Shown: positions 2,091 to 64,000 of the stretch, piece after piece
How the letters are laid out: every line of letters begins with the position of its first letter
Position numbering within the stretch: position 1 is the stretch's first letter
Source: Candidatus Latescibacterota bacterium
GTDB taxonomy: Bacteria > Latescibacterota > UBA2968 > UBA8231
DNA length: 64,000 nucleotides
Assembly (NCBI GenBank): GCA_965242865.1
Contig: CBDETK010000013.1
Location: 3,392,001 to 3,456,000, forward strand
Direction of reading: 5' to 3'
The notes under the pieces: generated by a model
Database searches by the model: none
The model's input: only the letters and a program-made list of their open reading frames with translations
What the model was told of the DNA's origin: nothing
Program-made: the position numbers and the translations under genes

Positions 2091-3494
2091 ATGCAACTCA
2101 CGACCAAAGATGCTGCGGAGGCACGTGCTGCCAGCCAGTCTGATCTATTGTTTATCTCGTTAGATTGGTCGCGGCCCAAAGATCTGCGAAGGCCCCTAGC
2201 CATGGCCTCAATAGAAGCCTATTTCATGAAGATTCAAACCGAAAACCTAAAAGCAGAATTTAGAAGTTTTAATTTGAATGCTCCAAGATTCAATATCCAA
2301 GACGTGCTAAAAACCATAGGCGAAACTCGTCCGATGTTTCTCGCACTTGGAGGCTATATTTGGAATGAAAAATATAGTCCAGATGTGATTCGCTGGACCA
2401 AGACCCACCATCCAGAGACAGCAATTATTATGGGAGGCCCCCAAGTCACTTATGGCGATCACAGCATGGCGATGGAATACCCCGGAGTGGATTATTTTAT
2501 CAGAGGAGAAGGAGAGGTCCCTTTCACGGAATTGATCAATGTGTTATTTCGTCATGGGACACCAGATCAGAGTTTTTTGGATAAATACGCGATTTACACG
2601 CCTAAAACCCTCAAGGAGGGAAAGTGCGAGCGCATTTTTACTACCGGCTTGGATGCGTTAGAATCACCTTATTTGAGTCGCGTCCTTCCAATTGAGCAAA
2701 ACCAAGAATTTGTCCGTTGGGAAACACTGCGCCGGTGTCCGTACAGATGTTCTTTCTGCCAGTTTCGTTTGGCAGGACACAAGATGGAGGAAATCAATCG
2801 GGAGCGGCTCTTTCAAGAGCTAGAGTATTTCAAGGCGAAGGAAGTTCGAGAGATTAACGTACTCGACCCGATATTCAATCTCAAGGCGGATCACTACTTA
2901 AACATTTGTAAAAAAATAGCTGAATTAGAGATGGGTGCTCGCTTCTATTTTCAGTGTCGGCTTGAATTGCTCTGTAGTGAGAACGGGCGGCGGTTTTTGG
3001 AGTTTTGTCAGGGCCTCGACGTTTGGCTCGAATTTGGCGTTCAAACTTTTCAAGAAAAAGAGTCCAAGGCCGTAGATCGAGGAAATAATTATACAAAAAT
3101 CAATGAGGCTATTGAACTTTTGCATAGATTCAATATCCCATTCGACCTTCATCTGATCTTTGGATTGCCATTTCAGTCGTTACGCGACTTTCTGGCGAGT
3201 TACGACAAAGCTAGAGCAGCGCAACCCCGGGGTCTCTACGTTTTTCCGCTCAATGTACTCAAGGGTACGCAGCTCTACTGGAAACGCGATGAGTGGGAGT
3301 ATGAATTCGACACTGAAGACAACAACATATTCCTGCAAAGTAAGTGGATGGAAAAGCACGAAGTCGCATACTTAAAAGAGGTCAGCAAAGGCATAAATCA
3401 AAGCTCAAAGCAGTCCCGATGTAACGGGAAATTGCTCCAACTTCCCGATTTGCGGAAAGAACTGGAAGAGCTCCAATATATCGAGGATAGCTGA
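2091..3494 (+). CDS. B12-binding-domain radical SAM protein
   Basis: CPYRCSFC (CxxxCxxC), YIWN, GGPQ, RGEGE, EFGVQT, LIFGLPFQ; ATG at 2091 follows GAAAGGA; lower GC than flanks. Confidence 0.88.
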   Translation: MQLTTKDAAEARAASQSDLLFISLDWSRPKDLRRPLAMASIEAYFMKIQTENLKAEFRSFNLNAPRFNIQDVLKTIGETRPMFLALGGYIWNEKYSPDVIRWTKTHHPETAIIMGGPQVTYGDHSMAMEYPGVDYFIRGEGEVPFTELINVLFRHGTPDQSFLDKYAIYTPKTLKEGKCERIFTTGLDALESPYLSRVLPIEQNQEFVRWETLRRCPYRCSFCQFRLAGHKMEEINRERLFQELEYFKAKEVREINVLDPIFNLKADHYLNICKKIAELEMGARFYFQCRLELLCSENGRRFLEFCQGLDVWLEFGVQTFQEKESKAVDRGNNYTKINEAIELLHRFNIPFDLHLIFGLPFQSLRDFLASYDKARAAQPRGLYVFPLNVLKGTQLYWKRDEWEYEFDTEDNNIFLQSKWMEKHEVAYLKEVSKGINQSSKQSRCNGKLLQLPDLRKELEELQYIEDS

Positions 3495-59749: not shown

Positions 59750-60505
59750 TCACTCCACGTCGAGGATGTAGCGCGCCAGCGGCGAGAGCCGCTCGGCGGT
59801 TGCCGGCCGCAAGTACGCACGCTGGTCAGTCTGCTGCGGATGCTCGCGGGCGATAAAGGCGCAGTGCAGGGTGCGGCGGGTCTTGGGGCTGAGGTTGCGA
59901 TACGAACTGTGCCAGAGGCTGCCATTGAACACGGCCACCGAGCCCGCGCGGCCCGTCAGATGCACTTGCTCTGGATGATCGGCTAGGGGATCGGCCACGT
60001 GGTCCACTACCCTGCCGGGTGTGAGGTGGCTGCCCGGAACGCAGCGGGTCGCGCCGTTGGCTCGGGCGAAATCGTCGAGCATCCACATGGAGTTGACCAC
60101 GTGATACGCGCCGGGCGCGTTGGGCTGCCCCCAATCCATGTGCAGGGACTGCAAGCCGCCGCCGATCCGTGGATCGTGCCCGTTGAGCGAGTGCAGCTTA
60201 AACGGCCGCTGCAGCACGTGGAAAACCGCCATCAGCAGGGTCGGTTGCAGGTACACCGCGTCGAAGACAGCCCCCTTGTTGACTAGATCGGCGAGGCGGC
60301 GCACCCCCGCCATTTGGGCGACCTCTATGCCGGCTTCGTCGCCTTCGCGGGCAAAGATCGCTTCAAAAGCGCGGCGCAACTCGGCCAGCCAGTCGGGCGC
60401 GATGACCTCTTCTAAGATGATGAAGCCGTGGGTGTCCAGCGCGCTGCATTGCGCGGGCGTTAGCGGCTGGGGGACGAAGCCCCGTTGCAATAATTCGCGG
60501 TCCAT
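59750..60505 (-). CDS. Phytanoyl-CoA dioxygenase (PhyH) family protein
   Basis: QSLHMD, NGATRCVPGSH, LWH, RR. Confidence 0.9.
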   Translation of the reverse strand: MDRELLQRGFVPQPLTPAQCSALDTHGFIILEEVIAPDWLAELRRAFEAIFAREGDEAGIEVAQMAGVRRLADLVNKGAVFDAVYLQPTLLMAVFHVLQRPFKLHSLNGHDPRIGGGLQSLHMDWGQPNAPGAYHVVNSMWMLDDFARANGATRCVPGSHLTPGRVVDHVADPLADHPEQVHLTGRAGSVAVFNGSLWHSSYRNLSPKTRRTLHCAFIAREHPQQTDQRAYLRPATAERLSPLARYILDVE

Positions 60506-60509
60506 TTGC

Positions 60510-61673
60510 TTAACTACCGGCTCGTCGTGTGAATTTGCACAGGGCGGTCACGCCGCGGCGGATGTGCTCTTCCGAGGCGGCGATGGAGACGCGCACGTGG
60601 TCGCGGCACATCTGGCCGAAGGTGCGGCCCGGCGCCACGGCCACGCGCTGCTCTTTGAGGAGCCGGACGGCAAATTCGCCGGAGTCCATGCCCGCCGCAG
60701 CAATGTCGATCATGAGGTAAATCGCGCCGCCTGGGGTATAGCGGTACAAGTCGTATTCTCTCAGGATATCGAGGGCCAAGTCGCGGCGGCGGCCATAGAT
60801 GCGGCGCATGTCGGCCACGGCGTCTTGCAGGCTGTCGAGCGCATCGGCGGCCGCGAGTTGGGAAAAGCCCGTGCCGCACGAGACAAAAGGCTCTTGCAGC
60901 TTGGCGGCCAGTTCAATGTACTCGGGGTGGGCGCGGGTGAAGCCCACTCGGTAGCCGGTCATGGCGTAGCTTTTGGACATGCCGGAGACGATGATGGCGC
61001 GTCCGTCGGCGTCGTTGAGCAGAGCGCTGTGATGCGGTTGATCAAAGACGATTTGGCCGTAGATCTCGTCGGACAGCACCCACAAGTCGCGGCGCTGGGC
61101 CCACTGCATAAGCTGGCGCATGAGCGTCGCGTCGTACACTTGGCCGGTCGGGTTGGAGGGCGTACAGAGCAAGAGGAGCTTGGTGCGCGGGCTGACGAGG
61201 CGGTCCATCTCGTTGAGGTCGGGCAGAAAGTGGTTTTCCGCTCGCAAATTGTAAAAGACCGGCTGGCCGTGAGCCATGGCGACGGCCATCTCGTAGTTGG
61301 GCCAGCCCGGGTCGGGCAACAGGACCTCGTCGCCCGGGTCGAGCAGAGCGAGAAAAGCGGTCGCCACGCTCATGACGGCCCCGGGGGTGACGAGGATGTT
61401 TTCGGCGGTGGTCGGTACGCCGGTGCTGCGCTCAAAGTAGCGAGCCGCGGCCGCGCGCAACGCATCGACGCCGGCATTGGGGACGTACTTGGTGTGGCCG
61501 GCGCGCACGTAGCGGCAGGTGGCTTCGACAATGGGCGCGGGCGTGGCAAAATCGGGTTGGCCTACTTCGAGGTGGATGACCTCGCCCGTTTTCTCGACCG
61601 CCCAAGCCAAGTCCATGATCTCGCGGATGCCCGAGCGAGGGAGCGACGCGGGGATGCGGGCGAAAGGCTTCAT
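60510..61673 (-). CDS. Class I/II PLP aminotransferase (aspartate aminotransferase-like)
   Basis: GQPDF, PSNPTG, SDEIY, SKSYAMTGYRVG. Confidence 0.93.
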   Translation of the reverse strand: MKPFARIPASLPRSGIREIMDLAWAVEKTGEVIHLEVGQPDFATPAPIVEATCRYVRAGHTKYVPNAGVDALRAAAARYFERSTGVPTTAENILVTPGAVMSVATAFLALLDPGDEVLLPDPGWPNYEMAVAMAHGQPVFYNLRAENHFLPDLNEMDRLVSPRTKLLLLCTPSNPTGQVYDATLMRQLMQWAQRRDLWVLSDEIYGQIVFDQPHHSALLNDADGRAIIVSGMSKSYAMTGYRVGFTRAHPEYIELAAKLQEPFVSCGTGFSQLAAADALDSLQDAVADMRRIYGRRRDLALDILREYDLYRYTPGGAIYLMIDIAAAGMDSGEFAVRLLKEQRVAVAPGRTFGQMCRDHVRVSIAASEEHIRRGVTALCKFTRRAGS

Positions 61674-62467
61674 CGGATGTGGATGCCCGGGCCGGTCGCG
61701 CCGATCATCTGCACGGTGTTGTAAATAGACGCGGGCGTTGAGGCGCCGGTGACGCCGGTGATGCCTTCGCTGCGCGCGACCTTGAGGTCAATGCCCGGGC
61801 CTTGGGCGTGGATTTCGACGATGGCTTCGCTCCATGCGGGGCTTACCAGCAACAGCGAGTGGGTGCGGTCGAAGCCAATGCCGGCGTACGCAATGGCGGC
61901 GTGGGTATTGACGTTGCGCGGGAAGAGCGGGCAAATGCCGCGCGTCGGGCCGTCGTAGAGGACGGTTTCCTCCTCGATGTCGTCGGGGCTGAGGCCAGTG
62001 GCCGCGCAATCGACGTTGTGCGGGGGCTTTTTCATCACCACATCGACCGACTCCCACACGTCGCGGTTTTCCAACAGCGCGTCCATGCCGACCACGCCGC
62101 CGTGCGGGACAAAGGCGCGGGTGCCGGCGCGGTGGGTCGTCTCTTCAAGGGTGGATTCGATGGCTGGGTCGGCCAGGGCGGTCACCGAAATGAACATGTA
62201 GTTGGTTTTTTCGAGGATGGTGCGTCCCCACCGGCGGGTGACCTCGGGGTGGGCCATCTCAACGACGAGGTCGGGCTGGCGCGCGGCAAAGTCGCCCAAA
62301 TCCGCTAGGCAGAGGTCGCCGGGGAGGTCTTGGACGGCCGCGGCTAGCTGATCGTGAACGAAGACGACTTCCATGCCGTTGTCTGGGTCGGCGTCTATCA
62401 TCGCGTGGACGGCTTGGCCGATCTGACCGTAGCCGATCAGGCCGATGCGAGTCGGGTTTTGGCGCAT
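61670..62467 (-). CDS. Aspartate dehydrogenase-like (DUF108) protein
   Basis: GYGQIG, GGVVGMD, KPP, FPRNVN; start ATG 62467. Confidence 0.8.
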   Translation of the reverse strand: MRQNPTRIGLIGYGQIGQAVHAMIDADPDNGMEVVFVHDQLAAAVQDLPGDLCLADLGDFAARQPDLVVEMAHPEVTRRWGRTILEKTNYMFISVTALADPAIESTLEETTHRAGTRAFVPHGGVVGMDALLENRDVWESVDVVMKKPPHNVDCAATGLSPDDIEEETVLYDGPTRGICPLFPRNVNTHAAIAYAGIGFDRTHSLLLVSPAWSEAIVEIHAQGPGIDLKVARSEGITGVTGASTPASIYNTVQMIGATGPGIHIR

Positions 62468-62516
62468 GGTTTGGCTCCTCAAAACGGGTGAATCGGGAGA
62501 AGCGAATATAGGCACT

Positions 62517-64000
62517 CTATTTGCGCTCGGCCATTTTGCAGACCCAGATGCTGATTTCGTACAGCAGGAGCAAGGGCAGGGCCATTAGGAGCTGGGAGAC
62601 CGGGTCCGGCGGCGTGAAGATCGCGCCGAGGACGAAGATGCCGATGACGGCATAGCGGCGGATACGGCGCATCCGCGCCGCGGTCAGCACCCCGACCTTG
62701 GCCAAAAAGAGCGCCAGCACCGGCATTTCAAAGACGATGCCAAAGCCCGCGATGAGCCGCAGCACAAAGCCGATGTACTCGTCGGCCGCCCATTGCGAGG
62801 TCATGTCGGGCGGCTCTAGGGCGAGGAAAAAGCGCAGCCCGAGCGGGAGGACGATGGAGTACGCGATCAGCGCGCCGACCGAGAAGCAGAGGACGCTCAG
62901 CGAGATAATGGGCACCATGAGCTGTTTCTCGCGCTGCAAAAGCCCCGGGGCCACAAACCGCCAGACTTGGTAAAAGACCACCGGCAGCGCGAGCAACAGC
63001 CCCCCGACAAAGGCGATTTGCAGGCTGATGAAAAAGTACGTCATGGGCCGGAGGGCTTGCAGGCGGCGCGCTGGGGGCAGATCAGCCGGGCGCGCGTCCG
63101 GGGTGGGCGCAGCGTCGGGCAGGCCCAACCACTGGCGCACCAGTTTTTCAACGGCCCGCACCGCGCCCGAGGATTGCTGGCTCTCCAAGCTGAAGACGGC
63201 TTCTTCGTAAGGCCGGGTCAAGATCTGCATGATCGAGTCCGAGAAGGCAAAGCAGAGTACCGCGCCCACAGTGAGTGCGCCGAGGGCCTTGAGAATGCGC
63301 CAGCGGAGTTCTTCGAGGTGGTCGAGAAAGGGCATGTTGGCTTCCCGGGGCGGTTCTGGGTCGGGGAGGGGTTCGGGTTCTGCTGCTGGTTCGGGTTCGG
63401 GTCGCGGCTTGCGGAAGCGGGCGACGAACGCGCCGAGGGCGACGAGCAGGCAGCCGTAAGCGAATAGGTCGCCGTGCCGCGTGTAAAAGGTCGCCGGCTG
63501 GCCGACCGGCACTGTGGCGACCGCGACGGCTGGCGTGAAGAGGTCCGTTGCCTCGTAGGTGCGGCCAAACGGGTCGATGAACAGGGAAATGCCGGTGGTG
63601 GCTGCGCGGGCGATGGCCGTGCGGTTTTCAATGGCGCGCATGGCGTTGATGAGCGCGTGTTGGTAAGGCCCGGCGCTGCGGCCAAACCACGAGTCATTGG
63701 TGATGTTGACCAACACGCGCGCCCCGGCCGCCACGTGCTGGCGCACGAGCGCGGGAAAGATGGACTCAAAGCATATTAGCACGGCAAAGGGATGCCGGGG
63801 ATGGGCAAAAACCGCGCGTTCTGTGCCGCGAGCGAATTCGGCCGGGCCGAGGTCGCCGGTCAGGCGGGTCCAGTCGATGGCGCGCAGCAGGGGGATGGCG
63901 TCGCGGTAGGGCGTCCGCTCGCCAAAGGGCACTAAGTGCATCTTGGCGTACCAAGGCAGGGCGGTGGCCCCGGGCTGGACGAAGAAGGCCGCGTTGTAGT
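62517..64000 (-). CDS. lnt-tatC: Apolipoprotein N-acyltransferase (Lnt) fused in frame to twin-arginine translocase TatC; 5'-partial
   Basis: YNAA, YAKMHLVPFGE, ICFES, ITNDSWF, RAIENR, Pro/Glu linker, then MPFLDHLEELRWRI, FVAPGL..E, FEMP, TPPD in one ORF. Confidence 0.88.
   Translation of the reverse strand, partial: YNAAFFVQPGATALPWYAKMHLVPFGERTPYRDAIPLLRAIDWTRLTGDLGPAEFARGTERAVFAHPRHPFAVLICFESIFPALVRQHVAAGARVLVNITNDSWFGRSAGPYQHALINAMRAIENRTAIARAATTGISLFIDPFGRTYEATDLFTPAVAVATVPVGQPATFYTRHGDLFAYGCLLVALGAFVARFRKPRPEPEPAAEPEPLPDPEPPREANMPFLDHLEELRWRILKALGALTVGAVLCFAFSDSIMQILTRPYEEAVFSLESQQSSGAVRAVEKLVRQWLGLPDAAPTPDARPADLPPARRLQALRPMTYFFISLQIAFVGGLLLALPVVFYQVWRFVAPGLLQREKQLMVPIISLSVLCFSVGALIAYSIVLPLGLRFFLALEPPDMTSQWAADEYIGFVLRLIAGFGIVFEMPVLALFLAKVGVLTAARMRRIRRYAVIGIFVLGAIFTPPDPVSQLLMALPLLLLYEISIWVCKMAERK

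Follow-up and report, generated by a model that had tools for sequence, protein, structure and literature searches.

A recurrent in-frame fusion of apolipoprotein N-acyltransferase and TatC in Candidatus Latescibacterota

The fused reading frame and its surroundings

The window, meaning the whole stretch of DNA analyzed here, covers 64,000 nt of a Candidatus Latescibacterota genome (G000:C13:3392001-3456000). At one end of it a single frame on the minus strand (62517..63998, 493 codons in the ORF listing) carries parts of apolipoprotein N-acyltransferase (Lnt) and of the Tat translocase subunit TatC, with its 5' end open at the window edge. The full ORF in the genome extends beyond the window (G000:C13:3454517-3456976) and has 819 codons if counted from a TTG and 801 from the first ATG, the latter being the length in residues of the public gene model (P0002). 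This ATG, at L003:4922, is the likely start of the gene, since strain variants have 1- or 2-base indels just 5' of it.

Read from the 5' side, the frame has the YAKMHLVPFGE and ICFES motifs, then a final hydrophobic helix with the basic residues RFRK after it, the linker RKPRPEPEPAAEPEPLPDPEPPREAN, the block MPFLDHLEELRWRIL and the remainder of TatC. The sequence-only reading of this DNA had described one ORF with the Lnt Lys and Cys motifs, the last transmembrane helix, a linker and a complete TatC from an ATG at 63335, and the ORF reading and the Pfam and NCBIfam matches all bear this out, on the minus strand. It had also called the linker free of stops and of alternative ATG codons; the codons at 63336..63413 (minus strand) indeed include no in-frame stop and no in-frame ATG, nor any in-frame GTG or TTG. 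The features are as follows.

63414..64000, minus strand: Lnt domain, its C-terminal part with the periplasmic CN-hydrolase domain and the final transmembrane helix, from Pfam CN_hydrolase, NCBIfam lnt and solved Lnt structures; continues upstream to the ATG at L003:4922
63942..63944, minus strand: catalytic Lys codon (K in YAKMHLVPFGE; K327 in P0002), invariant in 50/50 aligned fused proteins
63771..63773, minus strand: catalytic Cys codon (C in ICFES; C384 in P0002), invariant in 50/50 aligned fused proteins
63414..63467, minus strand: last Lnt transmembrane helix, then basic RFRK, from AlphaFold2 helix 486-503 (P0002 numbering) and the sequence
63336..63413, minus strand: linker RKPRPEPEPAAEPEPLPDPEPPREAN, 26 residues, acidic and proline-rich; stop-free, without in-frame start codon, pLDDT <50 at 507-530
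63333..63335, minus strand: conserved Met codon opening the TatC domain and possible internal start; Met in 93/94 distinct junctions
62520..63335, minus strand: complete TatC domain, 272 residues, from Pfam TatC (1-208/208), NCBIfam tatC and PDB TatC chains
63039..63170, minus strand: insertion of ~40 residues, at about this place, in the first periplasmic TatC loop, from a match of 250 residues on a 208-position profile
62517..62519, minus strand: stop codon of the fused ORF, from the ORF reading

The neighboring genes are none of them related to Tat or to lipoprotein biogenesis. On the 3' side and on the same strand (window 59750-62515, minus strand) are an aspartate-dehydrogenase-like gene, a class I/II aminotransferase and a PhyH-family dioxygenase; on the 5' side, divergently oriented (L003:5080-6581, plus strand), are RadC and a bifunctional-nuclease/UVR-domain gene.

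State of the two halves

Both domains are complete. Within the window, Pfam places CN_hydrolase at residues 1-165 of the translated part (E 4.3e-22) and TatC (PF00902) at residues 226-475, over the whole of its profile (positions 1-208/208, E 6e-70, 235.7 bits against a cut-off of 25.1), while the NCBIfam models lnt (TIGR00546) and tatC (TIGR00945) score 155.6 and 209.6 bits (cut-offs 132.9 and 132.7). For the full gene the TIGR00546 score is 316.5 bits (cut-off 132.9), covering profile positions 2-395/395, and the precomputed annotation of P0002 includes LNT_N (PF20154), the N-terminal multi-helix membrane domain.

Individual residues were followed in 50 aligned fused proteins, which share 40-94% identity with the protein of the window. 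E272, K327 and C384 (P0002 numbering), which we take to be E267, K335 and C387 of E. coli Lnt, are invariant in all 50, in the contexts WPE, K.HLVPFGE and CF[ED]S. The N-terminal HLxELRxR block of TatC is present (in MPFLDHLEELRWRIL), with H535, L536 and L539 invariant and E537, E538 and R540 nearly so; its acidic residue (Glu) is presumably the one implicated in signal-peptide binding by work on E. coli.

Comparison with solved structures gives a similar picture. Query residues 29-519 align end to end with Lnt chains (5N6H, 5VRG, 5XHQ, 6NWR; E about 1e-30), and query residues 548-591 and 638-819 with TatC of Aquifex aeolicus (4B4A, 4HTS; E 4e-43); the conserved Met at 63335 aligns with Met1 of the Aquifex protein (4b4a). 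An AlphaFold2 model made on the 50-protein alignment has a mean pLDDT of 77.3 and a pTM of 0.62, with the Lnt domain confident and the TatC domain moderately so. It has long helices through residues 12-217, the membrane part of Lnt, and the expected series of long helices at residues 531-800 in the TatC part. The linker (residues 507-530) falls below a pLDDT of 50, and pLDDT is also low at residues 585-589 and 605-628 in the TatC part, the insertion in the first periplasmic loop. This insertion of ~40 residues is absent from the shorter TatC domains of two sister families, f2 and f4; the TatC match is 750 bases long in the window's gene against 633 in f2.

Both ends of Lnt and the N-terminus of TatC face the cytoplasm. 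The basic RFRK after the last Lnt helix fits a cytoplasmic Lnt C-terminus, and TatC begins at the residue aligned with Aquifex Met1, so the compatible topology proposed in the sequence-only reading agrees with what is seen here. The join is presumably tolerated because both of the joined ends lie on this side of the membrane. On these grounds the protein would consist of a complete N-terminal apolipoprotein N-acyltransferase, a flexible, acidic and proline-rich linker on the cytoplasmic side, and a complete TatC, all in the inner membrane, and the Lnt half and the TatC half are both probably active.

Integrity of the junction

Such fusions are rare in general, and the genome is a MAG with an estimated contamination of 6.84%; both points lend something to the reading that a sequencing or assembly error lost the lnt stop, or that one half is a pseudogene remnant. 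Contigs from several runs argue against it. One from another study (P2, run X4) is identical across the lnt-tatC junction, and one from run X1, which may be the source sample, matches the whole stretch without difference. An indel or stop in the linker had been named as evidence that would count against a fusion, and two contigs from other studies do have indels there, but both are in frame: a 9-base deletion in X10 and a 3-base insertion in X5. Frameshifting indels in the strain contigs are found only upstream of the ATG at L003:4922 and past the stop. The 45 distinct fused junctions described below come from many assemblies, several of them single-contig chromosomes. As to decay, both domains match full-length profiles above curated cut-offs, the catalytic residues are invariant and the gene is the only TatC of its genome. 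With 45 in-frame junctions of very different linker length and independent contigs in agreement, an assembly error or a pseudogene is ruled out as far as sequence allows, and we regard this explanation as extremely improbable.

Contigs from X1 and X5 also match two short pieces of tatC (L003:2544-2564 and 3287-3336; window 62544-62564 and 63287-63336), with unrelated sequence between and beyond them. They probably stem from another organism in these samples, with a related tatC of its own.

Distribution among relatives

Among the 24 other genomes of the same genus, the frame is stop-free over both parts in 19 and interrupted by one in-frame stop in four; the remaining one, 58% complete, gave no match. 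In a search of relatives all 12 genomes of family f2 were fused, as was one f4 genome. None of the three genomes of family f3 was, and in two of these lnt lies directly upstream of tatC.

A TatC profile search of the phylum found matches in 162 of 168 genomes. Among the 150 TatC matches listed, 84 are fused: 83 in open frames of at least 713 aa, and one (G006) in which a contig end cuts the gene, counted because the junction itself is fused. By group, again among the TatC matches listed, the fused form accounts for 31/31 in f2, 21/22 in f4, 25/29 in the window's genus, 2/2 in g21 and 5/8 in g22. Of these 84, 45 distinct junctions were read directly and the others are assigned by the length of the frame. 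After removal of duplicates the junction set comprises 94 distinct sequences. A hydrophobicity filter put the window's own junction in the wrong state; read directly, it is fused. The four states are:

Fused: 45 distinct junctions
Adjacent genes with an in-frame stop: 7 distinct junctions
Adjacent genes out of frame: 25 distinct junctions
No Lnt motif within 700 bases upstream: 17 distinct junctions

The fusion is thus not obligatory, since 32 distinct junctions in related genomes are between adjacent but separate genes (seven with an in-frame stop, 25 out of frame). The sequence-only reading had offered the finding of separate lnt and tatC genes in all relatives as grounds for giving up the fusion; what was found is a mixture, with many relatives fused and some separate.

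In the 45 fused junctions the TatC Met lies 108 to 408 bases past the end of the Lnt motif, in frame every time. Many different lengths occur within the genus. The linkers of many genus members (e.g., L023, L026, L027, L045) include six-residue HDPExD-like repeats (18 bases), in copy numbers that vary between genomes. Such repeats are missing from the short linker of the window's gene.

Fused sequences are already present in public databases, where more than 100 clusters have LNT_N, CN_hydrolase and TatC domains together; they come from MAGs labelled Gemmatimonadota or Candidatus Latescibacterota. Where these clusters have been given a name it is mostly apolipoprotein N-acyltransferase, once TatC and twice hypothetical protein. 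Among the best 150 matches from 1.84 billion representatives, P0018 and P0070 are clear Lnt-TatC fusions, the others being Lnt or TatC of the usual form, or Lnt with a different tail.

Some of these other tails, and some other extended forms of TatC, may be recorded here. Four further Lnt proteins with C-terminal extensions (P0211, P0203, P0150, P0182) comprise an Lnt-CbiQ of 757 aa, an Lnt-LEA_2 of 622 aa, and two Lnt of 826 and 842 aa with ~340 extra residues that have no Pfam match. In genome G065 (L079:296-1954, minus strand), an RnfB-like iron-sulfur protein with FeS and several 4Fe-4S dicluster domains continues in frame into a complete TatC, for a stop-free 553 aa. This arrangement was seen in that one genome only, which is 57% complete; in four further genomes of the same genus the open frame is 282-291 aa long. 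In family f10, TatC lies in open frames of 406-464 aa (L083:2235-3524 and L084:2297-3514, both plus strand), in which the ~170-200 residues 5' of the conserved Met have no Pfam match. Judging from the frames, this upstream stretch may be a lineage-specific N-terminal extension or an open non-coding frame.

Origin of the fusion and number of events

Adjacency of lnt and tatC is a trait of this class. In its unfused members lnt lies directly upstream of tatC, and TatC seems to start at an upstream Met; there MPFLDHL is preceded by an acidic tail, about 20-40 residues long, at the position held by the linker in the fused form. Eleven of the 17 junctions without an upstream Lnt motif (L077-L087) are fetched loci from other classes of the phylum, and the other six (L043, L048, L049, L058, L060, L139) are from this class or unassigned. 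Farther afield, at 20 distant Lnt loci in other phyla, no TatC lies within 1.5 kb.

The genus members that have a stop, four in number, suggest how the fused form could arise. In each, one codon separates the lnt stop from an ATG; the acidic tail and MPFLDHL come next, all in the lnt frame, so that a single stop-codon substitution would give the fused form, with the former TatC tail as linker. Most likely, then, the fusion came about by loss of the lnt stop codon in an ancestrally adjacent, tightly spaced lnt-tatC pair, and the linker would correspond to the acidic N-terminal tail of the stand-alone TatC in sister lineages.

A gene tree was made from the Lnt and TatC parts with the linker left out (73 rows, a quick LG+G4 run with midpoint root; the short rows L047, L050, L055 and L125 were dropped). 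The fused rows form four separate groups on it: f2 with f4 (13 rows), g21 (2), part of g22 (5) and the main clade of the window's genus (24). The state has changed at least four times, a number forced by strongly supported branches, and an AU test rejects a single fused clade (delta lnL 512.7, p-AU 2e-7). Four fusions would be the most parsimonious reading of the midpoint-rooted gene tree. A single old fusion and then about a dozen fissions would be a less parsimonious history, but it has to be kept in view because fission may be the easier event.

One product or two

The Met codon at 63333..63335 could in principle serve as a start of its own. Under this alternative TatC would also, or mainly, be made alone from the ATG at 63335, free TatC would run the Tat pathway, and the fused protein would be a by-product of the lost lnt stop. 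The Met is kept in 93 of the 94 distinct junctions and in 44 of the 45 fused ones, its alignment with Met1 of Aquifex TatC fits a genuine start, and the sister genomes with a stop show TatC working as a separate protein. However, the single exception, an ATA at the Met codon in L068, is in a fused genome, and MPFLDHLEELRWRIL is invariant throughout, which means that the Met may persist as a residue rather than as a start.

The ribosome binding site is of limited help in deciding. For the region -20..-4 upstream of ATG 63335, the predicted pairing with the 3' end of the 16S rRNA is -4.3 kcal/mol. In the window's genome, 45% of 92 well-defined starts pair at least as well as this, as do 24% of 1500 internal ATGs, which accords with the earlier description of this site as lacking a strong Shine-Dalgarno sequence. 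Even at -6 kcal/mol or below the figures are just 29% of the 92 well-defined starts against 11% of the 1500 internal ATGs; the genome uses Shine-Dalgarno pairing weakly, so that the absence of a strong site leaves a start here possible. Against this, the pairing is weak not only here but in most fused members of the genus (-0.5 to -4.3 kcal/mol), and does not set the site apart from internal ATGs.

The linkers are Glu-rich, and stops would be expected to be common in them if only free TatC mattered, yet stops are absent in all f2 and nearly all f4 genomes. Taking these points together, we consider separate production of TatC from the internal ATG rather unlikely.

Complement of the genome and possible function

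The fused gene is the only TatC profile match in the window's genome and one of two lnt matches above the cut-off. The other is a stand-alone Lnt outside the window (G000:C13:1075879-1077066, plus strand, ORF of 538 codons) with ~38% identity to the fused Lnt, and most genomes of the window's genus have such a second, stand-alone copy. The TatA family (PF02416) has one match in the genome (75 bits, C13:1450650-1450802). In five of five f2 and f4 genomes that are 95-100% complete, there is no lnt match above the cut-off and no TatC besides the fused gene, so there the protein must serve all lipoproteins and all Tat substrates.

A crude regex scan of crude ORFs from the window's genome gave 151 lipobox candidates, 10 of them with a twin-arginine-like motif and ~2 of those convincing by eye. 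At least one convincing twin-arginine lipobox signal peptide, on contig C8, is among these crude-scan candidates. The count of twin-arginine lipoproteins suggested in the sequence-only reading, in this rough form, points to few of them.

The picture that we consider probable is of one 801-residue polytopic protein, with complete Lnt, flexible linker and complete TatC, as a maintained arrangement for co-production and co-localization, of unproven adaptive value. The tether would hold one Lnt beside each TatC, in equal numbers. A stronger proposal is that of functional coupling, in which the tether puts Lnt at the Tat translocon for on-the-spot N-acylation of folded Tat lipoproteins, or Lnt modulates the Tat receptor. 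Several observations are in its favor: across the class lnt is directly upstream of tatC even when the genes are separate, which is not so at 20/20 distant Lnt loci of other phyla; the fused state recurs at least four times; among the TatC matches listed it is kept stop-free in 31/31 f2 and 21/22 f4 genomes; the stand-alone second Lnt in the window's genome means that the fused copy could be specialized; and the signal peptide on C8 belongs to the kind of substrate that the proposal calls for. On the other hand, the twin-arginine-like candidates are few, and in f2 and f4 the fusion, as the sole Lnt, cannot be dedicated to Tat substrates. The wide variation in linker length and sequence argues against a fixed geometry, and close relatives do without the join. 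At least four gains or losses of the join are as compatible with a fusion that is tolerated or mildly useful as they are with a coupling device, and on balance we think functional coupling unlikely. We are equally doubtful that the tether is adaptive in the sense of a translocon-associated maturation site, with each Tat receptor subunit carrying its own N-acyltransferase.

Comparison with known systems

The nearest parallel met with comes from Mycobacterium tuberculosis and M. bovis BCG. In Ppm1 of M. tuberculosis (Rv2051c) and its BCG counterpart BCG_2070c, an Lnt domain is fused to a polyprenol-monophosphomannose synthase domain (PMC3850990); the same account has Lnt and Ppm synthase as adjacent separate genes in M. 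smegmatis (MSMEG_3860/3859) and Corynebacterium glutamicum (ppm2/ppm1) (PMC3850990). The two cases are alike in having an N-terminal Lnt with a second protein on its C-terminus, fused in some species and encoded by adjacent genes in others. They differ in the partner: the fusion with Ppm synthase links two lipoprotein modifications, whereas Lnt-TatC has a polytopic translocase subunit as partner and so combines a modification enzyme with an export machine. Compared to stand-alone Lnt and TatC, the protein studied here is one polypeptide with a 26-residue linker, and its TatC has ~40 extra loop residues. The separate lnt-tatC pairs of the sister lineages agree with the fused form in gene order and orientation, have a short gap between the genes, and differ from it by a stop (seven junctions) or a change of frame (25).

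Literature searches, full-text search included and with paper supplements outside their scope, found no description of an Lnt-TatC fusion, in agreement with the sequence-only reading, which knew of none. In the available portion of a 2013 survey of TatC diversity, one Gemmatimonadetes genome is given as having tatC and tatA apart, and the words "fused" and "fusion" do not occur (PMC3827258). What is new here is thus an undescribed, recurrent and sometimes exclusive architecture of two well-known proteins, the sequences of which were already in public databases as apolipoprotein N-acyltransferase. This is also an annotation trap: with the public records naming the protein in that way, the genome's only TatC goes unnamed.

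Significance

A fusion that reappears and is retained is one of the few hints, from sequence alone, that two membrane machines work side by side, and Lnt-TatC links the final step in lipoprotein maturation with the receptor of the pathway that exports folded proteins. It provides a natural test of how much bulk is tolerated at the TatC N-terminus, beside the signal-peptide binding site, and a handle on whether lipoprotein-modifying enzymes sit at translocons. If it represents only a tolerated loss of a stop codon, it is still a clean case of repeated fusion and fission between membrane-protein genes whose products have their ends on the same side. If the tether should prove to be adaptive, TatC oligomers would be able to bear a bulky eight-helix enzyme on each N-terminus, beside the site of signal-peptide binding, which would constrain models of the Tat receptor; and repeated independent fusion would then reflect convergent selection for coupling export to lipoprotein maturation.
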